IMG/VR virus record: IMGVR_UViG_3300031994_000004
Direction: 5' to 3' (one strand)
DNA length: 64,000 nt
Origin: a virus
Taxonomy: Duplodnaviria; Caudoviricetes
Shown: piece by piece, positions 29,149 through 49,994 of the stretch
Position numbering within the stretch: the first letter of the stretch is position 1
How the letters are laid out: each line of letters opens with the position of its first letter
Translations under genes and position numbers: made by a program
The notes under the pieces: model-generated
Told to the model about the DNA's origin: nothing
Seen by the model: only the letters and a program-made list of their open reading frames with translations
Database searches by the model: none

Positions 29149-31254
29149 ATGCTAGTAAGTGGTGGAAAAATAATTGCTATTGATGGTGTTAATACAACCA
29201 GTGCCACATTGTCTGGTGATGGTGTATTCACTCCACTGGGTGTTAATACAGATAATGTTGCTACAAAGAAATTCGTTACAGACAATTTGAATACTGTTAG
29301 TTCTAAACTAACAAATACAGATAATTATTTGTCTGCCGCTATTGATTATGTATCTGCTAATGCTGGTAAAACATATAAACCAGGTGCTGGTATTGAGATT
29401 GACAATAATAATGTTGTTAGTATCAGTTCAGATTATATTGATGCCATTACAAGTGTAAGTGCTATTAAAGGCACAATAATTAGTGGTGATAGTAATTTTA
29501 ATATTACATCGGCTAATAGTGGCAATAATATATTATGGAATTTGGAATTGACTTCTCAACCAGTTGTAACAGATACAACATTGAGTGGCTATAATGGTAT
29601 TATTGCCAGAAAAGATTCTACTGTTTCTAGTCAGTGGAATGTTGGACTTGATGGTACATATAAATCTGCCATTGAACAAGTTAGTGGAAAACTTGATAAA
29701 TCCGACAGTGCTAAATTCTATCCAATAACAAATCCAAGTGGATTTATCACTGGTATTCCTACAAGTTCTAATTGGGATAGTGTTTATTCAACTGTAAACA
29801 CTAACAGTGGAACTTGGAAAGATGTTACTTCTAAAGCAGACCAGACAGATTTGGAAACATTGAGTAGTAATGTTGAACATATAAGTGCTGATGTAGAAAC
29901 AATTAGTTCTAACTTAGACAATAAATTAAATAAAAATGATTTTACCGCTTGGTCTGCTAACATTGATACAGCATTTTATTCTGCTGGTGAAGGTCTAGCA
30001 TTAAATAATCACACATTCTCAATTAGTGCTAAGTATCTTTCTGCTAATGCACTTGACAATTTAAGTGGTAATTGGAACAGTGTTTATGATACTGTATCTT
30101 CTAACAGTGCTAATTGGAATAATCTAACTGCTATCAATACATTTAGTTCTATTGGTGGTGTTTCAGCTAGAAATAGTGCTGACGAATTATTGTTTGAACC
30201 AGGCGATAATGTTTCTATCACTACAGCTAATAATACCATAACTTTCTCTGCTAAAGATACAACTTATGACGAAAATGATTTTATTAGTGCTTCTCATTTA
30301 GATAACATTGGAAGTGTAAGTTCTAATGTAACAAGCAACTCTGCTGATTGGACATCCGCAGCTAGAGCATTAGAAGCTAGTGCTGATAAATGGAACACAA
30401 CACACGAACAATTCAACACAAGTTCTGTAAAATGGAATGAACTTTATGACGAATATCAAGTTAGTTCTAAACTATGGAATGATACCACAGATGCAGTAAA
30501 CACATTTAGTGGTGATTGGAATGAAGTTTCTGCTAAAGCAAATTCTGATGATTTGGAAGAATTGAGTGGTAAGGTTAAAACACTCAGTGGCGAATTAAAA
30601 ACAGCTAGTGCTTTCATTGAAGACCAAATTGATGTTTTGTCCGGTGCTATTGATGGTATAAACTATGATTTGAATTTCATTAGTGGCACAGTTGATAAAA
30701 AACTAGATATAAGTGCATTTGATAGTTATTCTGCAAATGTTAGTGCTGAATTTTCTGCTACTTCTGCTTGGGCACTTGATACATTCTTCAAAACCAGCGA
30801 ATACTTCTACGCTGTTTCAGGCACAGATAGTTCTTCTGAATATTTTAATTGGTCAGGAGATACATTGAGTGCAAGCTGGAAGGTCAAGCATTTTAATCTA
30901 TCGTTCAATTATGCCGTAAAGCCAGTTAGTGCTTGTCCTGATTTTATATATCGTTCACAAATGCAAGTTGGAAATACAATTATTGATGATAGACATTATA
31001 TAGAAGGCTATTCAGATACAGTAAACTACAATGTCAGCTATAACATATATAACGCCGACAATAAAACCTATAAGTTTACATTTAGTGCAGACGATAAGTT
31101 AAATCTTGAAAATCTTCATATCAGTTGTATCGGTTTTATTAACCCAAGAACTTTGAACGGAAACCTAGGATTTGTAGAAGACGGTACTTCCGGTAATTTT
31201 GTTGATAGTCAGGGTAATAAGTTTATATTCGTAGAAAAATTGCCAGTAGGATAA
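29149..31254 (+). CDS. tail fibre-like protein
   Basis: TLSGDG...PLG, Y.AG.G..I fibre motifs, S(A/G)xW coiled repeats; CATAAATA at 29122. Confidence 0.75.
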   Translation: MLVSGGKIIAIDGVNTTSATLSGDGVFTPLGVNTDNVATKKFVTDNLNTVSSKLTNTDNYLSAAIDYVSANAGKTYKPGAGIEIDNNNVVSISSDYIDAITSVSAIKGTIISGDSNFNITSANSGNNILWNLELTSQPVVTDTTLSGYNGIIARKDSTVSSQWNVGLDGTYKSAIEQVSGKLDKSDSAKFYPITNPSGFITGIPTSSNWDSVYSTVNTNSGTWKDVTSKADQTDLETLSSNVEHISADVETISSNLDNKLNKNDFTAWSANIDTAFYSAGEGLALNNHTFSISAKYLSANALDNLSGNWNSVYDTVSSNSANWNNLTAINTFSSIGGVSARNSADELLFEPGDNVSITTANNTITFSAKDTTYDENDFISASHLDNIGSVSSNVTSNSADWTSAARALEASADKWNTTHEQFNTSSVKWNELYDEYQVSSKLWNDTTDAVNTFSGDWNEVSAKANSDDLEELSGKVKTLSGELKTASAFIEDQIDVLSGAIDGINYDLNFISGTVDKKLDISAFDSYSANVSAEFSATSAWALDTFFKTSEYFYAVSGTDSSSEYFNWSGDTLSASWKVKHFNLSFNYAVKPVSACPDFIYRSQMQVGNTIIDDRHYIEGYSDTVNYNVSYNIYNADNKTYKFTFSADDKLNLENLHISCIGFINPRTLNGNLGFVEDGTSGNFVDSQGNKFIFVEKLPVG

Positions 31255-31264
31255 GGAATTTAAC

Positions 31265-31492
31265 ATGAAAGCAAGAGATTCAATTTATAACGTCGGAAAT
31301 GACTACCCACAATTTATTAGTATATACTATAATCCGACACCAACTCCGCCTGAACCTACACCTCCGGAACCGACACCGCCTGAACCTATTCCTGTGAGTG
31401 GAGAATTTATTTATGTAGAGAACGGAATTTCGGGTAGGATAGTAGATGATAAAGGGAACACTATTGTTTATAAAGAATATTTGAATCAATAA
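31265..31492 (+). CDS. small protein with PTPPE repeats
   Basis: PTPTPPEPTPPEPTPPEP; C-terminal YVENGISGRIVDDKGN resembles FVEDGTSGNFVDSQGN of 29149. Confidence 0.65.
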   Translation: MKARDSIYNVGNDYPQFISIYYNPTPTPPEPTPPEPTPPEPIPVSGEFIYVENGISGRIVDDKGNTIVYKEYLNQ

Positions 31493-31531
31493 ACACACAA
31501 AATTATAAATAATATAAAAATAGGAGAATGT

Positions 31532-34111
31532 ATGGATAAAAGATTTTCAGAATTAACGAACAATGCTACCGACTTCGCTAATGACGACGTTATTGCTCTT
31601 GATGGTGAAACTAATGGTACCAGAAAGATGAGTGGCTCTACATTGAAGAGTATAATGAAGGATAATACTTTAGCTACTACGGACAATAATGCTTATATGG
31701 TGTCTAATGGAGATGTAGTTAGAATTAAAGACTTGACTACTGCTATAAATGATTTCCGTAGTGGCGACGTAATACCCGTGGACGGAACGGATGGTACTGC
31801 AAAAATGTCGTATGAAAATTTGCTGAAAGTGACTGCGGGTATTCCTCTTGCAGAAATTACCGATTTGCGTGGAATTGAACCTTATGCGGGAGATCTTACG
31901 GCACTTTCGTCCGACCCTAGTGCTGACCCTAGCGTGTGGTACTTTAATTCGGACTCCTCTGCATCTACGTATAGACGTATAATGTACTACGATGCGGTAA
32001 ATGGCGCGTGGAGGTATTGTGTAAACAACTTAAAAATAGACGATGTAAAGACGTTTATTGCCATAAGAAATAATGCTATTTCTAGTATAATGGATGACTT
32101 GTTTACTGGAAGAAAGCCTGCACCGATTGCGTATTCCGGTGGCATTACTGTCATTACAGCGGACTCTAGTGCTGACAAGGAAAAAGTATATTATGATAAC
32201 GTAAACCCACCGTATCGTTTAATGTATTGGGATGAACAACTTGGCGTGTGGTCATACGTTGGAAACTATAACAAGAACCATTCATTAAGTCTTGCTGGTA
32301 TTGTCGGTGCTGAACCTTACTATGGTGGGCTCACATCGCTGAATGCAGATGCAGACGCGGATAAGTCTAAAATCTACCTGTTGAGTGTAAACTACAAGTT
32401 CGCCGTATATGACTCGGATAGTTCTTCGTGGGTGTACTACGATGCCATCTTCACACTTGAAAAGATGGTAAAATCGCTTTCAAAAATTTTCGGATTTGAG
32501 GTGTTCAATGGTAGTGATGCCGAACTTGCAAATGCGTCTTATAACGGCGACAAGAGCAAGATTTATCTTTCTTTGAAAGACAGCAACCCGTACGAGTTGT
32601 GGAAGTATGGAAGGTTTGTATTTTGGTCGCCTTACTTTAATTCGTGGCAGGTGTCCGATGTTGGTATAAGCGATGTAATCGCTAATTACTACAAGATAAC
32701 TGGAGCAGAGCCGTACTATAAGGGCGGTTTGACCGTCTTGAAGGCTGACCCGGATGCAGATACGTCAAAGACCTACTTTGTTATAACTCCTGGCGGAAAC
32801 TACCTGAAGAAAATGGTGTACGACTCCGTCAATTCAACGTGGGTATATACCGACAAGATAAACCTTGATGTGAACGGCTCGTTGCTTTCCATCATTTCTG
32901 GAATCGTAGGAGCGAAGGCTTACTTTGGCTCGTTACTTACACTTTCTTCGGATACTACCGCAGATACAACGAAGGTGTATTTCTGCGCCCTCGCCTCGTC
33001 TGCCGACTACCTCAAGATATTCGTATATGATGCTGCCACATCTTCCTGGACTTATGGCGGGAGTATTTCGGATTTTATAAACAAGAGCGACGAATCGTTC
33101 AACATTGAAAATGAAAAGGTGCGTGCATACCTTGATAATACTGCGTATGACAACACCGACTACACGTACACCGAGGTGCTGAAGTACGCCGCCAACAACT
33201 ATGACAAGCCGAACGGATTTTCTGTAAATTGGGAATTTGCTGGGACTTGCGACTCGTTCAACGTGAAGGTTTCGCTGACTGGCGACTTTGCCGATGGAAA
33301 GACGTACACATACAATGTTGTGAATACTGCTAGAAGTTTTGTTGTTAAAAATCTTGACCCGTCAAAGGTGGCTGGTGTAAAGGTTTCTTCCGTCACTGGC
33401 GGTGTAGAATCGGTTGTAACTTCAAAGGCTATTCCCTGCGAAGGACGAGTGCGAATGCTCGATGTAGATGGCATCCGTAATGTGCGAGATATTGGTGGAT
33501 GGGACTGCGGGAACGGAAAGCGAATCAAGTACGGCAAGTTTTTCCGTGGTAGTGCGATTGACGAGAGTGGCAGCACAATTACATCTGCGGGAAAGGCCGT
33601 ACTTTACAATTTGAACGGAGTGCGTGCAGAGATTGACTTGCGCTCCACCGCTTCGCCCACCACCTCCGACATTGGTGCATCTTGTGTAAAGTATTCTATC
33701 ACTGGCTATTCTTACATCAATGGTTTCAACAATACGAGCGATGCGTACAACGTATTTAGCCGAGTGTTTACCGAAATCGCAAGCGGACATCCTATCTATA
33801 TGCACTGCTCCGGCGGATGTGACCGCACGGCTTTTTATGTGTGTATGCTTGAAGGATTACTCGGTGTTTCGGAAAATGACATTACTAAAGACTTTGAACT
33901 ATCAAGTTTTATGGATAAGGCTTATTCCAACAACTACCGCAGATACCGCAGTATGGGTGTTGAATACTCTAATAGAGACTGGCTTGGCCTTATCACACTC
34001 ATCAAGGGCTTAACAGGTGGCACTTGGGTCGAAAAGTTTGATACATATTTTACTAGCCTCGGATTTACGCAGTCCGATATTGATGCGGTGCGTAATGCCA
34101 TGTTGGAGTAA
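31532..34111 (+). CDS. putative virion protein: duplicated N-terminal module, six ~60-aa repeats, C-terminal Cys-dependent (PTP-like) phosphatase
   Basis: NVRDIGGW...FFRGS...EIDLR...HCSGGCDRT (CX5R); late promoter 31504; GC-rich from ~31760. Confidence 0.8.
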   Translation: MDKRFSELTNNATDFANDDVIALDGETNGTRKMSGSTLKSIMKDNTLATTDNNAYMVSNGDVVRIKDLTTAINDFRSGDVIPVDGTDGTAKMSYENLLKVTAGIPLAEITDLRGIEPYAGDLTALSSDPSADPSVWYFNSDSSASTYRRIMYYDAVNGAWRYCVNNLKIDDVKTFIAIRNNAISSIMDDLFTGRKPAPIAYSGGITVITADSSADKEKVYYDNVNPPYRLMYWDEQLGVWSYVGNYNKNHSLSLAGIVGAEPYYGGLTSLNADADADKSKIYLLSVNYKFAVYDSDSSSWVYYDAIFTLEKMVKSLSKIFGFEVFNGSDAELANASYNGDKSKIYLSLKDSNPYELWKYGRFVFWSPYFNSWQVSDVGISDVIANYYKITGAEPYYKGGLTVLKADPDADTSKTYFVITPGGNYLKKMVYDSVNSTWVYTDKINLDVNGSLLSIISGIVGAKAYFGSLLTLSSDTTADTTKVYFCALASSADYLKIFVYDAATSSWTYGGSISDFINKSDESFNIENEKVRAYLDNTAYDNTDYTYTEVLKYAANNYDKPNGFSVNWEFAGTCDSFNVKVSLTGDFADGKTYTYNVVNTARSFVVKNLDPSKVAGVKVSSVTGGVESVVTSKAIPCEGRVRMLDVDGIRNVRDIGGWDCGNGKRIKYGKFFRGSAIDESGSTITSAGKAVLYNLNGVRAEIDLRSTASPTTSDIGASCVKYSITGYSYINGFNNTSDAYNVFSRVFTEIASGHPIYMHCSGGCDRTAFYVCMLEGLLGVSENDITKDFELSSFMDKAYSNNYRRYRSMGVEYSNRDWLGLITLIKGLTGGTWVEKFDTYFTSLGFTQSDIDAVRNAMLE

Positions 34112-41764: not shown

Positions 41765-44700
41765 ATGGCTGATGAAGTAAAGAATGGTTTAAGTGCCGAT
41801 TCAAGTAGAATAGCAAGTAAATGGAATAGAAATACTGTAGCAGATGGTTCTTGGTTACAGAAATATACATTAAATCCATTAACTGCTAGAGACTACTATT
41901 TAGCAAGTGCTATTGATGCGTTAGGTAGTGCTACTGACGATACAACATCAGCATTGAGTGCGGCTATATCGTCTGTAAGCTCAATACACGATGAATATAT
42001 CAATTATTTGTCTGCTACAATTAGTGGTGATATCAGTGGCTACATTAATTATGTTTCAGGTAGTGTAACTGCTTTAAGTGGTGATTTAAAAACTTCAGCT
42101 GATGAATTATTGCGTTTAATTGATGAAGAACATGGTAGAGCGGATGATGCAGAAACAAAAATCAATAATAGACTTGACAATATGGAAGCCGCAACTGATG
42201 TTATAAACGTATATGGTTCGTGGGATGATTTCACAGATAATTCAGGTGATTTGTTCACATTATCTGGTATTACAGATAATGATATAATTAAAATTTTAAA
42301 TGATAAAAATAGTTATCCAAATGAAATGTTCCCAGGTGTACAACCAGTAGCAAGTGGACATCAAACATATTTCAGATGGATAAACTCAGCAATTCCGAAG
42401 TCTGCTCATATTAAACCATTAGACCCAACATCAGGTTATTGGAATTTTATTGGTTATGTGGACCCTTATTATACTACAACAGAAATTGACGAATACTTAA
42501 ATGAATTATCAGCAACAGTATCCGATAATTATTTGTCAGCAAATGAAAATGCAGTTAGTGCTGGAAAAAATATACAAATTATTTACGATGAAAATAAGCC
42601 AAAAATTACTATTAACACAAAAGATGATGTAGAATTTAATAATGTAAGCTCTAAAAATGTTTCATCAACAAATGTAACGGCATTAACTGCACAAGGTAAC
42701 AGTGCTAATTTCACTACCGGTAATTTTACTAATTTGACTTCTACTAATGCTACAGCTACAAACATACAAGGAACACAAGCAAACTATACTAATTTTAGTG
42801 GTTCATATCTTACTGGAGTAAATGGTAATAATACCGTTACTACTACAATTTCAGGTCTTATAAATTCAGCATCTGAGATTGGAACTAAATTAAATATATC
42901 TGATTTTAATAATTGGTCTGGTTCTACAGCTAGTTTGTTCAGTGGAACTTCTAGAAGTGCTAAATCAGCTAATAGTGCTACAAATGCTTATAGTTCTACA
43001 ACTGCTTATGCAGCTCAAAATGTAGGTAATGTTGCTAGTGCAGATTTAATTGGTTCAGCACAAAGTGGTAAAGCCGCATATAATGTATTATCTGCAGCTA
43101 CATTTACAGCAAATGATACAACGGCTAAACTATCGGCTGGGTTTAAACTTATTGCTGGTCAAGGTGTAGACATTCAACATGCCGCTGGTTCTACTGATAT
43201 AACCATAACAGCAGAAGGAACTACATATTCGGAAGGTGATTATATTTCAACAGCAAATAAAACTATTGCTGTAACTAGGGATTTAATTACATCAGCTAAT
43301 GCAGGTTCAGCCGCTAGTGCTTGGGTAAATTCTCATTCTGCTGGATTGAATATACAAGGCGGATATGGTATATCTACTGGTACAAATGAAAATGGAAATT
43401 TAGTAATTAACATACGAAACAATGGTTGTGATTATGCTGCCTATGGTTTAGCTTTAGGTAAGAATAGTAGTGCTATAGGTGCAGCAAATGGACCTAATGC
43501 TTTTGCATTCGGTGATTATTGTTATGCTCACGGGGCAAATGCTTTTGCTGCTGGATGTCATTCAACTGCTGGTAAATTTGCAGTTGCTATGGGTTGGAAT
43601 AATGTTGCTACTGGTGATTACTCATTAGCATTAGGTTATAATTCAACTGCTGAAAGAGCTTATACAGTCGCTATAGGTCGTGGTTTAAGTGGTACTGCAC
43701 AAACAACATTAGGAAAATTTAACGAATCAGTTAATGGTGCTCAGCTAATTGTTGGTGATGGGCAAGACCAAGGACATGATGTTACTGCAAGAAAAAACAT
43801 TTTAGTAATTAAAGACGATAAAGTAAGTGCTGCTGACTTCAGTGCTGGTAATGTAAGTCTTTCTTCATTAACTAATTTTTCCGCATTTGGTAATGGTATT
43901 ACAAATACAGCAACATTTAATTTGTCTGCAGTAAAATTGAGTGCTGGCCAAGGTATTGGTTTCAAGAATGATACTAATGGTGTATTATCTATTAGTGCTG
44001 AAGGTAGAGCTTATACAGGCGAAAACTATGTAAAAGTTGATAACACAACTAAAAAGATTAGTTTGTCAGGTGATTTAGTAAATTCTGCTCAATCAGGACA
44101 AAGTGCTTATAATTGGATAACAACAAAGAGTGCTACATTATCTGCTGGCCAAGGTATAAAATTTACATCAGCAGCCACAAACACTTTAGGTATTGGACTA
44201 GATACAGATAATTTTTCAGCATCAAACATTAGTGCATTAAATTTCTATATTCCTAGTGCCAATGATGGTGCAAGATCTGTTTCCGAAATATCTTCTAATT
44301 CTACTGGTGTCTCAGCACACATAGTAGAAGAGATGGTTAATAAAGTTGTTACAGCATCTTGGCGTTCAATTATTGATGCCGCAAATGCTGCTAATAAATA
44401 TGTACCATTAACTGCTGAAAAATGTACCATTGGTGATGACAATAATGCTTATGATAATTCTTTGGCACAAGGTTCTAATAATACAGCAGAAAATCAATCA
44501 TTAGCACAAGGTTGTTTAAATGAAGCACATAGTAATTCATTAGCACAAGGTTCTAATAATAGTGCAAATTCATGTTCATTTGCACAAGGTTATTATAATA
44601 GTGCTGCAAGTTATTCTCTTGCATTTGGCACACATTCACAAGCATATCAAGGTGGTTTTGCATTTTCTCCTTATTTATGGGGTACACAAACTAAACCTTC

Positions 44701-45598
44701 ATTAGCCAGTGGTAACTCATTTGCTTTTGGTAATGGTTGTACTGCTGAAATTAATTCTTTTGCTATGGGTTCTAATTGTTCAGCTATTACTGGTGGTTTT
44801 GCTTATGGAACTGATTGTACCGCCGCATCAAATAGTATTGCTATGGGTGTAGGTATGGTATCAAAAGCAAAACAAATTTCTTTAGGTTACTATGGTTTAA
44901 TACAATCAGGAGCAACTAATAATGTAGTTTTCCATGTTGGTTATGGGTTAGGTCCAGAAGACGAAAATAGAAGAGATGTTTTTAGAGTAACAAGTGCAGG
45001 TGCTATTGCTAGTTTTAATGCCGGTTATGCTAATCCACAACCAGCTGAAGTTCTATTAACTAATGAATTTTTCCAAGCACCTAGACAATTTGGTAGAAGA
45101 ATACCAATGCGTTTATCACAAGGTCTTGAAATGGGAAATGGTTTGAATCTTAATATCAAAACTTATCCTGCTGCTTTTACTGCTACACATAATATAATCT
45201 TTGGTGATGATGCCGAAGGATATTGTTTTAATATGTGGATTCCTGATACAACTGCATCACAAGAATTTACATTAACAAAAGCTGCTTCTATACATCGTGG
45301 TGTATATAGATTATCTATCGGTGTTGATAAAAATTATTCTATTATATTTAAAAACTTTGAACCAAATACAGGTAGTCAATCAAACCATACTGTAATTAAA
45401 ACGGGTACAAATGTTACTGGTTCTTGGCCTAATGGTGGTACTAATGCTACTTATGATTATTCATCATTTTTCTTGGATAAAGAACAAGCAACATCAAATA
45501 CATACTTTAATTTTCCAGCTATACCTTGCGATGATGTTATAACATTTATTGTTGATGGTGCAACAAAACAATTTATTATGATTAAAGGGCACAGCTAA
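41765..45598 (+). CDS. long tail fibre / adhesin with YadA-like head repeats
   Basis: 1277 aa; 13-aa SLAQG.NN.A and A.A.G...A repeats; LSAGQGI motifs. Confidence 0.8.
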   Translation: MADEVKNGLSADSSRIASKWNRNTVADGSWLQKYTLNPLTARDYYLASAIDALGSATDDTTSALSAAISSVSSIHDEYINYLSATISGDISGYINYVSGSVTALSGDLKTSADELLRLIDEEHGRADDAETKINNRLDNMEAATDVINVYGSWDDFTDNSGDLFTLSGITDNDIIKILNDKNSYPNEMFPGVQPVASGHQTYFRWINSAIPKSAHIKPLDPTSGYWNFIGYVDPYYTTTEIDEYLNELSATVSDNYLSANENAVSAGKNIQIIYDENKPKITINTKDDVEFNNVSSKNVSSTNVTALTAQGNSANFTTGNFTNLTSTNATATNIQGTQANYTNFSGSYLTGVNGNNTVTTTISGLINSASEIGTKLNISDFNNWSGSTASLFSGTSRSAKSANSATNAYSSTTAYAAQNVGNVASADLIGSAQSGKAAYNVLSAATFTANDTTAKLSAGFKLIAGQGVDIQHAAGSTDITITAEGTTYSEGDYISTANKTIAVTRDLITSANAGSAASAWVNSHSAGLNIQGGYGISTGTNENGNLVINIRNNGCDYAAYGLALGKNSSAIGAANGPNAFAFGDYCYAHGANAFAAGCHSTAGKFAVAMGWNNVATGDYSLALGYNSTAERAYTVAIGRGLSGTAQTTLGKFNESVNGAQLIVGDGQDQGHDVTARKNILVIKDDKVSAADFSAGNVSLSSLTNFSAFGNGITNTATFNLSAVKLSAGQGIGFKNDTNGVLSISAEGRAYTGENYVKVDNTTKKISLSGDLVNSAQSGQSAYNWITTKSATLSAGQGIKFTSAATNTLGIGLDTDNFSASNISALNFYIPSANDGARSVSEISSNSTGVSAHIVEEMVNKVVTASWRSIIDAANAANKYVPLTAEKCTIGDDNNAYDNSLAQGSNNTAENQSLAQGCLNEAHSNSLAQGSNNSANSCSFAQGYYNSAASYSLAFGTHSQAYQGGFAFSPYLWGTQTKPSLASGNSFAFGNGCTAEINSFAMGSNCSAITGGFAYGTDCTAASNSIAMGVGMVSKAKQISLGYYGLIQSGATNNVVFHVGYGLGPEDENRRDVFRVTSAGAIASFNAGYANPQPAEVLLTNEFFQAPRQFGRRIPMRLSQGLEMGNGLNLNIKTYPAAFTATHNIIFGDDAEGYCFNMWIPDTTASQEFTLTKAASIHRGVYRLSIGVDKNYSIIFKNFEPNTGSQSNHTVIKTGTNVTGSWPNGGTNATYDYSSFFLDKEQATSNTYFNFPAIPCDDVITFIVDGATKQFIMIKGHS

Positions 45599-46439
45599 TC
45601 AAATTACCACTGCAAGGACTAAAAGTTAATTCACTAAATTTAACTTGTCCGTTAATTGAATACAAATCAACACGAACAAATTTAAAATCCGAAGCCAATT
45701 TCTTAACGATTGGCTTCATTTTTTTATATGTTTCTTTTTCTTTACTTAATAACTTGAATCGCATTGGTTTAATTCCAATGTACATATCAGTATTTTCACA
45801 ACTAGAATCTGTAAAACAAATAAATTCTTCCAAGTTCTTACCTAATTTCCTACTTAATTGAATATATTTGATTTCACCATTCTCACACCAAAATTGCCAA
45901 TCTAACAATTTACCTAAATCTGGTTGTACAATAATTCCACGATTTATATTTTCATACTGCCATTCAAATCCACAAATATAAGCATAATTCAAATTTAACC
46001 ATTCATTCAACTTTGAAATTAGGTAACTTGGGTCATTTCCTTTTTTCTTTTCAAATCGCATATTCCAACCAGACCCGTGATTACATCTAAAAAACCATTT
46101 ACCATCTGGCAAATGATTAAACATATCCAAAGTGAATTCTGTGTTTATGAAAATATAAGCTGGTTGAATAAGTATATTTTTTAGTTCAGTGTTTAATGCG
46201 ATTTGATTATGAGCAGCTATTTTATCTGCCCATATTGCTTTTCTTTCGTCTTTATCGTAAATCTTACACCAGTTTATTCTATCTACAATGTTCTGTGGAT
46301 TTTCCAGATTCACGCTTGGAACATTCTTTTTAGTCCACTCAATCGCATACTGCATTTTATCTTCGGCAAATCTACAGTTGTTATAATCTGTATGATGTAA
46401 TCCTTTGAGCCATTCTTGTCTGTATTCTTCTTCGGTCAT
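45582..46439 (-). CDS. TupA-like ATP-grasp protein
   Basis: ADK..A, CNHGSGWN, W.YENI, FVRVDLY...VKFSELTFSP.SG. Confidence 0.85.
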   Translation of the reverse strand: MTEEEYRQEWLKGLHHTDYNNCRFAEDKMQYAIEWTKKNVPSVNLENPQNIVDRINWCKIYDKDERKAIWADKIAAHNQIALNTELKNILIQPAYIFINTEFTLDMFNHLPDGKWFFRCNHGSGWNMRFEKKKGNDPSYLISKLNEWLNLNYAYICGFEWQYENINRGIIVQPDLGKLLDWQFWCENGEIKYIQLSRKLGKNLEEFICFTDSSCENTDMYIGIKPMRFKLLSKEKETYKKMKPIVKKLASDFKFVRVDLYSINGQVKFSELTFSPCSGNLISCAL

Positions 46440-46702
46440 GTAAAATCCTTTTCAGATTTATATAATCTATAATTCAGATTTCTATATTTGAATTCTAAAG
46501 ATAACATGTTAAAAATTTGTCTTAATTTTTTAATACTATTTATAGGTGTACTCATAAAAGGTTGTGTATAAACAATATAATTATTTTTATTTTGTTCAAT
46601 AAATCCAACTATTTCAAATTTGAAATTTTCATACAAAATTTCATTCTTTTTTATTTTAAAATTAAATTCATGACACAAGTTTAACAATTTATCGTATCTC
46701 AT
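46436..46702 (-). CDS. xxDF-family small protein
   Basis: Ends LYKSEKDFT. Confidence 0.65.
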   Translation of the reverse strand: MRYDKLLNLCHEFNFKIKKNEILYENFKFEIVGFIEQNKNNYIVYTQPFMSTPINSIKKLRQIFNMLSLEFKYRNLNYRLYKSEKDFT

Positions 46703-47022
46703 ACAAAATCCTGAGATATATTATTTAGTATAATCTCTTGGTTATATTCTTTTATACCATGTTCAACAATTTGTTCTAATAATTTGTGAGTATATATTGA
46801 AGAAGAAGTATTTTCAGTTAAAAAGTATAACAAATTAACATCTATATTTTTTCTAATTATTATATCTATTATATGATTAACATTTTCAATAGCAAATCTA
46901 CTGTTTATATCTTTGTTACAGTTACATATTTTATTTACCAAATTTGTTAAAACTATACGATACTTATTAAAAATTATGATTTTATCTTTCCTATAATAAT
47001 CTTTATATTTTTCAAGCATCAA
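46699..47022 (-). CDS. xxDF-family small protein
   Basis: Ends LNNISQDFV. Confidence 0.65.
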   Translation of the reverse strand: MMLEKYKDYYRKDKIIIFNKYRIVLTNLVNKICNCNKDINSRFAIENVNHIIDIIIRKNIDVNLLYFLTENTSSSIYTHKLLEQIVEHGIKEYNQEIILNNISQDFV

Positions 47023-47329
47023 AGTCTCCTTCCATCTTTTTAAGTCTATCCAACATTTTTCGGTATTTTATTTTTGGCAAAAAATCAGTATCCATTACTT
47101 CACACGCTTCTTCGTAAGTTTCTATTATTAGAACTTTAGTGAAGAATCTAAGCGAAATCCAAGTTAGTTTAGTTTCAAATACAGTACAATTACAAATAGC
47201 AATGGCTGTATTCAGTGTAGGTTCGTATATTTTTGAAGGAAGATAAAAATAATTGTTGCTGTAATCTATACCCATTTCAACATTTAAATTATACTTTTCC
47301 TTAAATTTCTTAAATTCTTCAGGTGTCAT
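47012..47329 (-). CDS. xxDF-family small protein
   Basis: Ends LKKMEGDFDA. Confidence 0.7.
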   Translation of the reverse strand: MTPEEFKKFKEKYNLNVEMGIDYSNNYFYLPSKIYEPTLNTAIAICNCTVFETKLTWISLRFFTKVLIIETYEEACEVMDTDFLPKIKYRKMLDRLKKMEGDFDA

Positions 47330-47610
47330 TAGAAATCTTTATCCAAACTTTTAATTCGTTCTCGTTGTATATTTTCTTTAAGTTGTTTGATTTTGTTTGA
47401 CAAGCGTTCTTGTAAATCTTCTTCTTTAATGTGATTAAGAGTTTCACCTGTAAATGGATATAACCACAAAATACTTCTGTTAATCTTTTTTGTCAATAGG
47501 ATGTTCCCTATTGCTACTTTATTTTTGAAAACTAAAATATATCCATTATTACAAGGTGTGCGACCTAAACCATATTCGCAGACAATTCTATCAAAATCGG
47601 TATATGTCAT
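47329..47610 (-). CDS. xxDF-family small protein
   Basis: Ends IKSLDKDF. Confidence 0.7.
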   Translation of the reverse strand: MTYTDFDRIVCEYGLGRTPCNNGYILVFKNKVAIGNILLTKKINRSILWLYPFTGETLNHIKEEDLQERLSNKIKQLKENIQRERIKSLDKDF

Positions 47611-47876
47611 TTAAAATCTTCCTTAATGTCTTCTAGTTTGTTTTCCAGTTGAGTTTTCTTATATCTTTCAATGAAGTGCTCAAGTTTCAAAGTGAAAGCT
47701 ATAACATTATCATAAGCATCACATGCACTGAAAAATACAGTGCAACTTTTCATATCATTATTCATCCAATAATTTGCTACATTATTTTGTCTATAATAGA
47801 TACTTCCGTTGTCACACACAAAGCCATATTCATTACAAATTTCTATCATTTTTTCAATAGTCAAAGACAAATTCAT
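47607..47876 (-). CDS. xxDF-family small protein
   Basis: Ends LEDIKEDFK. Confidence 0.7.
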   Translation of the reverse strand: MNLSLTIEKMIEICNEYGFVCDNGSIYYRQNNVANYWMNNDMKSCTVFFSACDAYDNVIAFTLKLEHFIERYKKTQLENKLEDIKEDFK

Positions 47877-48184
47877 TGGAAATCCTTTTCTATGTTGTTG
47901 AGTTTACGCTTCATTTTAAATGCTTTTTCTTTTTGCATAAGTTCATTTACATAGAAATCATAATCTTCTTTTGTGAGATTAAGTGCGATTTGTTTGGGTA
48001 CAACTATTCTGGCGTGAGGAGCATCTTCTTTATCAACAAATTCAGTTTCGCACCAACCAGCACTTATCTGGTTCATAATTTCGTCAATCCACAAAACATA
48101 TTCGTGTGGTGTGTACTTTAGCCAGGAACTAACATTCAAATCTCGCCAAGTCTTTCTTGCCATTTCATAATCATATACTTCCAT
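47873..48184 (-). CDS. xxDF-family small protein
   Basis: Start MEVYDY coupled via TAATG; ends LNNIEKDFQ. Confidence 0.7.
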   Translation of the reverse strand: MEVYDYEMARKTWRDLNVSSWLKYTPHEYVLWIDEIMNQISAGWCETEFVDKEDAPHARIVVPKQIALNLTKEDYDFYVNELMQKEKAFKMKRKLNNIEKDFQ

Positions 48185-48429
48185 TAGAAATCCTCGCCCA
48201 TTTTCTGTAATCGTTTTCTTTCTTTGAAATACTTGTTGTATGCTTCGCACCATCTGTCAAACAATGCTCGGCTGGCTAAATCTTCATTTTCGTACATATC
48301 AAGATAATACCCGCCCTGGTGCATCTGGTGGTATAAGTAGTACCTCTCACAAAGTTCTAAAATTGTTTTTCCAGATACAACAGCGTCAATACAATTTCTG
48401 CTATCAGTAAAAATCTTTAGACTATACAT
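48184..48429 (-). CDS. xxDF-family small protein
   Basis: Ends LQKMGEDF. Confidence 0.7.
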   Translation of the reverse strand: MYSLKIFTDSRNCIDAVVSGKTILELCERYYLYHQMHQGGYYLDMYENEDLASRALFDRWCEAYNKYFKERKRLQKMGEDF

Positions 48430-48695
48430 TAGAAATCTTCCTTTAATTTTTTGAGTTTATCTTGCTCTTGTTTGTATCTTAAAATTGCTCTGTAATTCCT
48501 ACCATTCTCTCTTAATTCTTCAATCGTAAATTCTTTTGCAGGAATACCAGCCGTAACGGCTTGAAGTTCTCTAGTTCTTAAATCGGAAGTCCAATATGCT
48601 AATGAACCTTCATCATACCAACTGTAGATGGTTTCATCTGAATCCATAGAGTTATTAGTTTCTATCCAAAATTGTTTATATTCCTCAAAAGTCAT
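48429..48695 (-). CDS. xxDF-family small protein
   Basis: Start MTFEEY; ends LKKLKEDF. Confidence 0.7.
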   Translation of the reverse strand: MTFEEYKQFWIETNNSMDSDETIYSWYDEGSLAYWTSDLRTRELQAVTAGIPAKEFTIEELRENGRNYRAILRYKQEQDKLKKLKEDF

Positions 48696-48876
48696 TTTCA
48701 ATGTCCATAAGTTTAAGTTTTTCTTTAATCTCTTTAATTTCTTGCTCAATTTCAATTCGTTCTTCAGTTTTCATAGTTTCTCTAGCCATAGCACCAGTTA
48801 AGAAATCTCTGTATTCCAATCTGAGATTGAGTGTTTCCAATCGTATTTGTAAAAGCTGTGCTAAAAAACTATCCAT
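48685..48876 (-). CDS. xxDF-family small protein (helical-hairpin subtype)
   Basis: Ends LKLMDIENDF. Confidence 0.7.
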   Translation of the reverse strand: MDSFLAQLLQIRLETLNLRLEYRDFLTGAMARETMKTEERIEIEQEIKEIKEKLKLMDIENDF

Positions 48877-49091
48877 TAAAAATCCTGTTCAATACTATGT
48901 CTTTTAAGTTGTTCTTTAATTTGTTTTAATTCTTTCTCAAGTTCTATTTGCTTTTCTGCTGGTAATTTGTTTTTACCTTTTTGTTTAGCCGACTGGGCAA
49001 GTACAAATTCAATATGTCGGATTCTATCTTCATAAAGCCATTTGATAAAATCGTAACTATCCATACTTGGACTTGTATCTACTTCAAACAT
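48876..49091 (-). CDS. xxDF-family small protein (helical-hairpin subtype)
   Basis: Ends RHSIEQDF. Confidence 0.7.
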   Translation of the reverse strand: MFEVDTSPSMDSYDFIKWLYEDRIRHIEFVLAQSAKQKGKNKLPAEKQIELEKELKQIKEQLKRHSIEQDF

Positions 49092-49357
49092 TAAAAATCC
49101 TCTTGTAATTTATCCAATCTTCGTTTTTGTTCGTAAAATTTTCTATTTAATGTAGAATTAGAATGTAGCAAATTTCGTGCTTCTTCAGCAGTCATATCTT
49201 TCCAGGCTTTTGTATGCTTAGTCCAAACATATTCTTTAAGTTGTTCATTGTACTTGAAAGTTGAAGGTACTAAATCCATAGATGCTAAAATTTGTTCGTA
49301 TGAATAACCTTCAGTACCATTTGGAAAGAAAATTTTAATATGTTCACTATAAGTCAT
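49091..49357 (-). CDS. xxDF-family small protein
   Basis: Ends LDKLQEDF. Confidence 0.7.
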   Translation of the reverse strand: MTYSEHIKIFFPNGTEGYSYEQILASMDLVPSTFKYNEQLKEYVWTKHTKAWKDMTAEEARNLLHSNSTLNRKFYEQKRRLDKLQEDF

Positions 49358-49563
49358 TAGAAATCCTTTTCCATTTTAATCAGTTTCAATTTCATTTCAA
49401 TTTCTTTCTTGCGGAGTTCCATTTCGTGAAAATATGGTTTTGCTCGTTCTGATTGTTTTAAGCAGGACATATTCATATCAAGAAAGAAAAGTTCTTCTTC
49501 AAGTTCATCTTCAAGAGTTTGTGGTTGTTCAACCCAAGTTATTTGTGGTCCTTTGTCTTCCAT
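49357..49563 (-). CDS. xxDF-family small protein (helical-hairpin subtype)
   Basis: Ends LIKMEKDF. Confidence 0.7.
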   Translation of the reverse strand: MEDKGPQITWVEQPQTLEDELEEELFFLDMNMSCLKQSERAKPYFHEMELRKKEIEMKLKLIKMEKDF

Positions 49564-49739
49564 TAGAAATCCTGCTCCATTTCGTATTTTCTAAGTTCTT
49601 CTTTTTCTTGCTTAATTTGAAGTTCAATTTTAGATTTTTCTTCTGGAGAAAATGTTAGTGATAACTGTAAATACAATCTTCTAATCTCCAGTTTACAGCA
49701 TCGTATCATAAATTCTCTAATTTCTTCATTAGAAGTCAT
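49563..49739 (-). CDS. xxDF-family small protein, 58 aa (absent from ORF track)
   Basis: MTSNEEIREFMIRCCKLEIRRL...ELRKYEMEQDF*, fills the gap in the array. Confidence 0.7.
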   Translation of the reverse strand: MTSNEEIREFMIRCCKLEIRRLYLQLSLTFSPEEKSKIELQIKQEKEELRKYEMEQDF

Positions 49740-49926
49740 TATTTATTTTCGTTAGTTTAAGTTGAAGTTTCAAATGTTTAATTTCTGCCTCAATAGTTGC
49801 AACTTCGGCAGTTGTCAATTTTTCATCTTCATATACTGGGTATTTACTGCGGTCTAATTTTAGTCGCAAATCTCTTATTCTATTTTCAAGTAAGCCAATT
49901 AAAAATTCATTATATTCATCTTCCAT
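49729..49926 (-). CDS. xxDF-family small protein (helical-hairpin subtype)
   Basis: Start MEDEYNEF; ends LTKINNDF. Confidence 0.7.
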   Translation of the reverse strand: MEDEYNEFLIGLLENRIRDLRLKLDRSKYPVYEDEKLTTAEVATIEAEIKHLKLQLKLTKINNDF

Positions 49927-49994
49927 ATAATAAAAATAAAAAAAGACCACATATTTGACAATATGCGGTCATAATAAAGTGTTTAAGTTAGAAC

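Follow-up and report, generated by a model that had tools for sequence, protein, structure and literature searches.

A conserved C-terminal Asp-Phe helix shared by small, exchangeable genes of an uncultured T4-like phage lineage

Results

This work concerns a 64,000-nt stretch of the viral record IMGVR_UViG_3300031994_000004 (hereafter the window) and, within it, an array of 14 small genes on the minus strand between positions 46436 and 49926 whose proteins all end in the same way. The window is part of the genome of an uncultured T4-like myovirus of the gut; it is AT-rich (~33% GC) and encodes topoisomerase II subunits, a tail sheath protein (gp18), a sheath stabilizer, the prohead protease gp21, NrdD/NrdG, and Rad50/Mre11-like gp46/gp47. 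The sheath shows only ~30% identity to its nearest cultured relatives, across one third of the protein, and the array is without a DNA or protein match in 50,697 GenBank phage records. All 14 open reading frames terminate in Asp-Phe (DF) followed by no residue (9 genes), one residue (4) or two (1), in tails of the general pattern ..[KR]-L-x-x-[I/M/L]-x-x-D-F. Neighboring genes overlap by 1-11 nt at 14 of 14 junctions, including the last one into a TupA-like ATP-grasp gene; seven junctions are TAATG, four are ATGA, and three are longer overlaps of 8-11 nt. With every junction overlapping, translational coupling of the array genes is shown as far as sequence allows, and the first-pass annotation, which described 14 coupled small genes sharing a helix and an xxDF end, is confirmed for every gene and every junction.

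In order of transcription the array opens with three genes encoding minimal helical hairpins plus the tail, namely 49729-49926 (65 aa, ATG at 49926; ..KLTKINNDF), 49563-49739 (58 aa; ..RKYEMEQDF), which starts within the AATGAC of the preceding tail with an 11-nt overlap, and 49357-49563 (68 aa; ..KLIKMEKDF; TAATG junction). Next are 49091-49357 (88 aa; ..RLDKLQEDF), with a head of its own and a 51% identical ortholog on the 409-kb scaffold L004, and two further minimal hairpins at 48876-49091 (71 aa; ..KRHSIEQDF; L004 ortholog 83% identical) and 48685-48876 (63 aa; ..KLMDIENDF). Two genes with their own heads follow at 48429-48695 (88 aa, ATG at 48695; ..KLKKLKEDF) and 48184-48429 (81 aa; ..RLQKMGEDF), then 47873-48184 (103 aa, ATG at 48184; ..KLNNIEKDFQ), 47607-47876 (89 aa; ..KLEDIKEDFK; ATGA junction), 47329-47610 (93 aa; ..RIKSLDKDF), and 47012-47329 (105 aa; ..RLKKMEGDFDA), whose last codons hold an AAGGAG Shine-Dalgarno site for the next gene. 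The array closes with 46699-47019 (106 aa, ATG at 47019; ..ILNNISQDFV) and 46436-46702 (88 aa; ..RLYKSEKDFT), which shares an ATGA overlap with the ATP-grasp gene and has an ortholog in the relative L002.

The tail is not confined to the array, the site to which it had been ascribed, since six further window genes on both strands bear it. On the plus strand these are 3580-4017 (145 aa; ..SYKMEEDFQ), uncoupled and 147 nt from the next start; 4521-4937 (138 aa; ..KFKSMSEDF), which is TAATG-coupled to 4937-5203 (88 aa; ..KLNKMKEDF); and, uncoupled like 4937-5203 itself, 5261-5653 (130 aa; ..KEKKLSKDF) and 28742-29107 (~112-121 aa; ..KLKEMNEDFI), the latter after nrdG. The sixth, 55536-56021 on the minus strand (161 aa; ..KLAKIESDF), lies upstream of gene 46 and is also uncoupled. 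The strict pattern [KR][LIM]xx[LIM]xxDF occurs 15 times in a six-frame translation of the window, and 13 of the 15 matches end no more than 2 residues from a stop, compared with 0-3 matches anywhere and ~0.05 at the C-terminus in twenty triplet shuffles; chance is therefore excluded. Non-coding frames end in DF at background frequency (5 of ~527 stop-to-stop frames of at least 40 aa).

Anchoring 105 tails on the Phe (position 0), drawn from the window, the IMG/VR records G001, G002 and G004, and two metagenome loci, shows that the originally described motif, (L/I)xx(M/I/L)xxDF, is present but too short: the conserved module is ~16 residues long and includes K-15, K-12, [KR]-8 and K-5. Lys occupies position -15 in 94 of the 105 tails, Lys or Arg position -8 in 99, Leu, Ile or Met position -7 in 85, and Ile, Met or Leu position -4 in 99, with weaker preferences for Lys at -12 (48 tails) and -5 (45). 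On a helical wheel, positions -15, -12, -8, -5 and -1 (K, K, K/R, K, D) make a single stripe that adjoins a hydrophobic stripe formed by -7, -4, 0 and partly -11 and -14; the net charge of the last 16 residues is ~ +1.5, and 23 of 46 tails carry 1-2 residues after the Phe. The claim that the tail is helical is supported by AlphaFold2 models of two members. The 63-aa protein of 48685-48876 is predicted to be a helical hairpin (residues 2-21 and 37-62; predicted local distance difference test score, pLDDT, 81), and the 103-aa protein of 47873-48184 an alpha/beta head followed by a 31-residue C-terminal helix (residues 72-102; pLDDT 85). In both models the tail is the end of a continuous helix (37-62; 72-102) with pLDDT mostly 80-94. 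All tailed proteins are 54-200 aa long, and no large enzyme bears the tail.

The heads that precede this module are mostly unrelated, as the first-pass annotation had stated. Clustering by BLAST within each record places 35 tailed proteins in 34 clusters, 22 in 22, 13 in 12, and 20 in 19. The exceptions are the five short members (48685, 48876, 49357, 49563, 49729), described earlier as little more than a hairpin and a tag and here found to be paralogs of one hairpin family (BLAST E 1e-9 to 2e-2), and 47873-48184, whose head matches that of 4937-5203. The modeled heads thus comprise at least two unrelated predicted folds, the hairpin and the alpha/beta. No credible Pfam or PADLOC family was found for 46 DF proteins, and the ten array members tested had no match in PHROGs. 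The tail profile gave nothing below E 1 against PDB sequences, a Foldseek comparison of the 103-aa model with the PDB had no match below E 0.39, the ESM Atlas held no match for the DF proteins, and a search of the literature for a described tag of this kind returned nothing relevant.

Codon usage identifies the level at which the tail is maintained. All six Leu codons are used at Leu-7, and four codons (AAA, AGA, CGA, AGG) encode the basic residue at -8; across the 20 window tails the Phe is TTT in 11 and TTC in 9, and the Asp GAT in 16 and GAC in 4. Codon variation had been offered as a sign of protein-level selection, and with six codons at Leu-7 it is stronger than was stated. An overlapping downstream start is absent for 40 of 85 tails in four records, and the D-F persists even at the junction where the next ATG falls within AATGAC, 11 nt earlier. 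The DF tail is selected as protein. An explanation wholly in terms of the overlapping ribosome-binding site of the next gene, which had been named as the result that would overturn the idea of a tag, fails because 40 of 85 tails are uncoupled and because many codons are in use at conserved positions as far as 45 nt upstream. One part of that explanation does hold, in that the codon before the Asp fits a Shine-Dalgarno site in coupled genes. Such sites are used generally in this phage, with 40 of 62 other genes having one. Where genes are coupled, the codon ahead of the Asp tends to end in G, xAG-GAT giving AGGA 6 nt before the next ATG, and a codon forming AGGA or GGAG at position -2 is found in 26 of 45 coupled tails (58%) versus 12 of 40 uncoupled ones (30%; Fisher p 0.016). 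Read directly from the sequence, a single residue after the Phe (E, K, Q, V or T) accompanies an NNATGA overlap, and TAATG is found otherwise. As sequence comparison shows, the last 12-14 nt of a coupled gene (GAYTTY-TAATG or GAYTTY-NNATGA) supply the Shine-Dalgarno site, the spacer and the start of the next gene.

Gene calls made with a simple greedy caller in four IMG/VR records place DF tails on 35 of 150 called genes in G002, 22 of 93 in G001 and 13 of 100 in G004 (13-24%). In the more distant record G003 (142 kb, sheath 47% identical) only 2 of 180 called genes carry the tail, which is background; this record has no other shared tail and, by tblastn, no homolog of any of 53 DF proteins. 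Scanning the tail alignment and the hairpin family against 185,579 species genomes for host or prophage copies of the tail confirmed nothing. In public metagenomes the hairpin subfamily, clustered at 90% identity, amounts to 360 clusters, with contigs reaching 409 kb, and it is represented by only 18 sequences at 50% identity among 1.84 billion proteins, each matching at the very C-terminus. The DF proteins are a lineage-specific set of small accessory proteins of an uncultured, deep-branching clade of T4-like phages.

Close relatives differ at this site by whole genes. Scaffold L004 has 13 genes here, ~nine of them orthologs at 39-87% identity; one window array gene is missing, and three positions, including that of 47329-47610, hold unrelated yet DF-tailed genes. 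The relative L002 has a single DF gene at the same site. In L039 a two-gene insertion follows the ortholog of 47329-47610 and the genes at 46436-47019 are replaced, with all ends at the joints between genes; one joint is short of a base, giving a tail that reads ..DFNDT. Where array members are replaced, as in L004 and L039, unrelated genes stand in their place and the DF tail is retained. Outside the array, G002 is ~92-96% DNA-identical to the window around 4521-5203 and has one extra 306-nt DF gene (101 aa) lying exactly at the joint of 4521-4937 and 4937-5203, flanked by repeated GARGAYTTYTAATG. These comparisons show that the GAYTTY-TAATG joint is a repeated point at which whole genes have been inserted, lost or swapped, presumably by recombination.

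The DF genes are probably early or middle, because they lack late-promoter motifs and because of their orientation: the late-promoter motif TATAAATA lies just upstream of 14 plus-strand structural and other genes and of no DF gene. A copy inside 46436-46702 was considered as a late promoter of the ATP-grasp gene; neither the ortholog nor other relatives preserve it, and it is thus probably due to chance.

The array site is bounded on one side by a convergent tail-fiber-like gene (41765-45598) and on the other by the gp46/47 unit. Along the minus strand the order is a GT-A-like glycosyltransferase (51408-52316), a TupA-like ATP-grasp gene (50515-51411), a conserved 172-aa gene (49995-50513), a hairpin with a T-run, the 14 small genes, and a second TupA-like ATP-grasp paralog (45582-46439). 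This arrangement of ATP-grasp and glycosyltransferase genes beside the tail-fiber-like gene is kept in L002, L004 and L039, and the enzymes may decorate a glycan on the virion or the host surface. The acidic 172-aa protein belongs to PHROG 1401 (function unknown), ends in a hydrophobic ..GVFMLYMFKSEF, and directly precedes the array in all relatives; its position approximates that of T4 gene 55, and no evidence was found for gene 55 identity. Between it and the first array gene, the GC-rich hairpin and T-run at 49945-49970 (minus strand), overlapped by a weak sigma-70-like match at 49961-49933 from a consensus scan only, may mark the start of the array's transcription unit. Farther upstream, the Mre11-like (52611-53606) and Rad50-like (53691-55370) frames, both on the minus strand, have TTG starts and N-termini that look truncated. 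A second and different shared module, ..(D/E)(D/E)FE(A/K)EYQ(A/I)FI-x-x-L(K/R)-x-K.., occurs near the C-terminus and before a short charged extension in otherwise dissimilar proteins encoded at 59944-60150 and 60095-60877 (plus strand) in the window and at 681-908, 912-1235 and 1319-1606 (minus strand) in L002.

Polymerase tails provide a view of what the clamp-binding motif of this lineage is like. The DNA polymerase P0141, encoded on the DF-clade contig L033 among DF-tailed neighbors, ends ..IELAQSGFDDFFV (the acidic ..SGFDDFFV), and similar ends, of the type [G/T][L/M/F]-x-x-F-F-x, are seen in ~40 polymerases of the wider group among those listed with it. Since a DF-clade polymerase ends in this way, the clamp motif of the lineage is a different sequence from the DF tail. 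The clamp itself (gp45) was looked for in five IMG/VR records with PF09116 and PF02916 and none was found; the G003 protein at the gp45 position has only 5 close homologs, none in the DF clade, and no PDB match. Also in G003, a 135-aa protein at 99190-99597 (plus strand) ends ..GMFEFFG, nearly identical to the ..GMFNFFG of the G003 polymerase (~93.1-96.1 kb), and is likely an additional clamp client there. L033 further carries, near its polymerase gene, a PARG_cat_microb gene (microbial-type poly(ADP-ribose) glycohydrolase domain) at 2223-3050 (plus strand).

Discussion

The first-pass annotation proposed that the shared ends resemble a docking or sorting tag on a variable effector library. 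What stands of this proposal is a protein-level, C-terminus-specific module on mostly unrelated heads, whose conservation pattern prompts the proposed docking role. A shared interaction surface is indicated because one helical face is conserved on unrelated, fast-turning-over proteins and is kept by every replacement gene, and we regard it as an evenly balanced proposition that the DF tail is a modular docking helix for one common partner, of host or phage origin. In such a mechanism each protein would consist of a variable head fused to a constant C-terminal helix of ~16 residues, in which the face formed by K-15, K-12, K/R-8, K-5 and D-1 lies beside that formed by L-7, I/M/L-4 and F0. The conserved face could be laid into a hydrophobic groove with an acidic rim on the common partner, and docking would bring many different heads to the same machine, with the terminal 12-14 nt additionally serving as the start signal of the next gene and as a swap joint. 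Several considerations weigh against this proposal. The conservation pattern is the sole ground for docking, and no partner was found. Conserved C-terminal helices could equally serve turnover, localization or nucleic-acid binding, and the hydrophobic stripe might fold against the head of the protein that carries it. Part of the conservation, that of the last 4-5 codons, can be accounted for at the DNA level by the repeated joint, and the early timing follows only from missing late-promoter motifs and gene orientation.

Other functions for a conserved terminal helix must be considered alongside docking. The heptad-like hydrophobic spacing (0, -4, -7, partly -11 and -14) and K/E-rich surface would suit a coiled-coil or oligomerization helix through which the proteins pair with themselves or each other, the conserved residues being structural; the minimal hairpins could form four-helix bundles, and an antiparallel arrangement allows K-15 to pair with D-1 in 43 of 46 cases. 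The same antiparallel register, however, sets K/R-8 against K/R-8 in 43 of 46 pairs, which is repulsive, and in parallel tails predicted g-e' repulsion is as frequent as attraction, with 16 repulsive versus 9 attractive pairs at -15/-10. Only some three positions of the hydrophobic seam are strong, the near-invariance of K-15, K/R-8, D-1 and F0 across unrelated heads is left without a reason if the proteins form independent homo-oligomers, and cross-pairing is normally selected against. Like charges flank the hydrophobic seam, and docking on an acidic-rimmed partner is therefore likelier than self-pairing, which we consider improbable. A complex prediction for the 103-aa protein of 47873-48184 with the 63-aa hairpin of 48685-48876 scored 0.00, which is no answer and counts neither way. 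The four Lys/Arg positions on one face, and the net positive charge, could instead bind nucleic acid or an anionic membrane and so localize the proteins to DNA, RNA or membrane, but an invariant Asp-Phe, a conserved Leu and I/M/L, and frequent Glu at -2/-3 are unexpected for backbone binding, and the hydrophobic face seems too narrow and too acid-flanked for an in-plane membrane helix; this function is accordingly unlikely. A degron or stability tag read by a host or phage protease or unfoldase, for joint timed removal or protection, would explain a signal that is strictly C-terminal, common to a whole temporal gene class and limited to proteins of at most 200 aa, and a MoxR-like AAA+ gene and a DUF2201 peptidase-like/VWA-like gene do lie within the G002 DF cluster. 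Known bacterial C-terminal degrons are short and unstructured, whereas the tail ends a long, confidently predicted helix continuous with the head, and the same gene pair occurs in G003, where DF tails are absent; we judge this alternative to have a small chance of being correct. The pair itself comprises a MoxR-like AAA+ (AAA_5) gene beside a DUF2201_N/DUF2201 gene with DxSxS intact (minus strand; 4357-5772 and 5962-7167 on L036, corresponding to ~84.4-87.2 kb of G002), with a counterpart at 30343-31605 of G003. It was set aside as a tail receptor, and is not specifically linked to the tail, because DF-free G003 has it (38% identity) without a shared tail.

Three further explanations fare less well. 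Conservation purely at the level of DNA or RNA, through the ribosome-binding site and recombination joint and with a peptide devoid of function, can point to last codons that double as Shine-Dalgarno site and spacer in coupled genes and to indels that break at the joint. Residues -4, -7, -8 and -15 nevertheless sit 12-45 nt upstream of the joint with many synonymous codons, and neither the uncoupled tails nor the D-F retained at the displaced ATG is expected of it, so that it is barely tenable. Loading into the head and injection is suggested by the capacity of T4-like phages to bring unrelated proteins into the prohead by a short shared tag, and by the presence of gp21. The T4 capsid-targeting sequence (CTS) of IPI-III and Alt occupies the N-terminus of late-expressed proteins, from which the prohead protease removes it by cleavage after Glu. 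The DF tail resembles it as a short tag common to unrelated proteins of a T4-like phage; it differs in being C-terminal and in lying on genes without TATAAATA upstream, on the strand opposite the adjoining structural genes, and about a fifth to a quarter of called genes would be too many cargo species. A packaging signal is for these reasons very unlikely. The idea of a variant sliding-clamp (gp45) binding motif, like those of T4 gp43, gp33 and gp55, is similarly remote. It draws on the T4-like character of the phage (topoisomerase II, gp18, gp21, gp46/47) and on the first-pass analogy with T4 clamp-binding LDF motifs: both are short C-terminal modules on unrelated proteins of a T4-like phage, with an acidic residue and then an aromatic end, and both suit one hub with many clients. 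Clamp epitopes of the T4 family are short and hydrophobic-acidic, sit on divergent linkers, and are nearly identical among gp43, gp33 and gp55 of one phage (PMC2988020). They span ~6-11 residues on a flexible linker and are of the same type as the polymerase tail, whereas the DF tail is a basic helix of ~16 residues, predicted to be continuous with the head and without a flexible linker, that differs from the ..SGFDDFFV of its own clade's polymerase and lies on 13-24% of called genes. Each clamp offers three sites, for which more than 100 early clients would presumably compete, and the analogy does not hold.

The comparison with SSB C-terminal tails, also made at first, fails on related grounds. 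The tails of SSB (..DDDIPF) and of T7 gp2.5 and gp4 (..DF) are acidic and disordered, require Phe as the last residue, its carboxylate free, and are found on a single hub protein with many partners. The two systems have in common a docking point that ends in Asp-Phe or Pro-Phe, but there one acidic tail lies on one hub, and here a basic, helical tail lies on many proteins; a free Phe carboxylate is not required in the DF tail because half of the tails have residues after the Phe. Nor is the tail a PIP box (Q-x-x-[LIM]-x-x-[FY]-[FY]); agreement is limited to [LIM] at position 4 and the spacing, with position 1 being L/I/M in 85 of 105 tails and positions 7-8 Asp-Phe.

No pool of unknown function in phage genomes is larger than that of the small early genes, which are usually studied singly; here one handle is shared by about a fifth to a quarter of the genes called in most fragments of the lineage. 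If docking on a single partner is correct, one pull-down would locate a whole class of takeover or counter-defense proteins, and the tail could help to recognize such genes in metagenomes and serve as a portable tag. How T4-like hyperplastic regions can exchange genes in frame is shown concretely by this coding joint, in which a protein motif, a ribosome-binding site and a recombination point coincide.

The closest precedent for this exchange is the gain, loss and replacement of small early genes as units in hyperplastic regions of T4-type phages at promoter early stem-loop (PeSL) motifs, as described by Arbiol et al. 2010 (PMC2839356) and Comeau et al. 2014 (PMC4122927). Breakpoints fall at a short boundary repeat in both systems, and here the insertions, deletions and replacements between close relatives are flanked by a repeated boundary motif. 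The PeSL is an intergenic early promoter plus stem-loop, whereas the DF joint is coding, made of Asp-Phe codons with overlapping stop and start that are at the same time part of a protein motif; the array contains no intergenic DNA, and only its head has a hairpin with a weak promoter-like match.

More tentatively, the DF helix may be an address label through which effector heads, well over a hundred in number, unrelated and rapidly exchanged, connect to a single machine of host or phage, such as a protease/unfoldase or a hub of transcription or replication. Each gene would then be a self-contained, plug-and-play cassette, with the ribosome-binding site and the recombination joint contained in the codons at the end of the label. 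If so, the helix could possibly represent, by analogy and with similar reserve, the bacterial-virus counterpart of the poxvirus ankyrin/PRANC adaptor libraries. The F-box-like PRANC is a folded domain of ~40-50 residues in a eukaryotic setting, its partner is Skp1/SCF, and the heads that carry it are all ankyrin repeats. Both systems would combine many fast-evolving genes, variable target-binding heads and a constant C-terminal docking module for one host machine. They differ in that PRANC is a folded domain on ankyrin heads, whereas the DF module is a single helix on unrelated folds.

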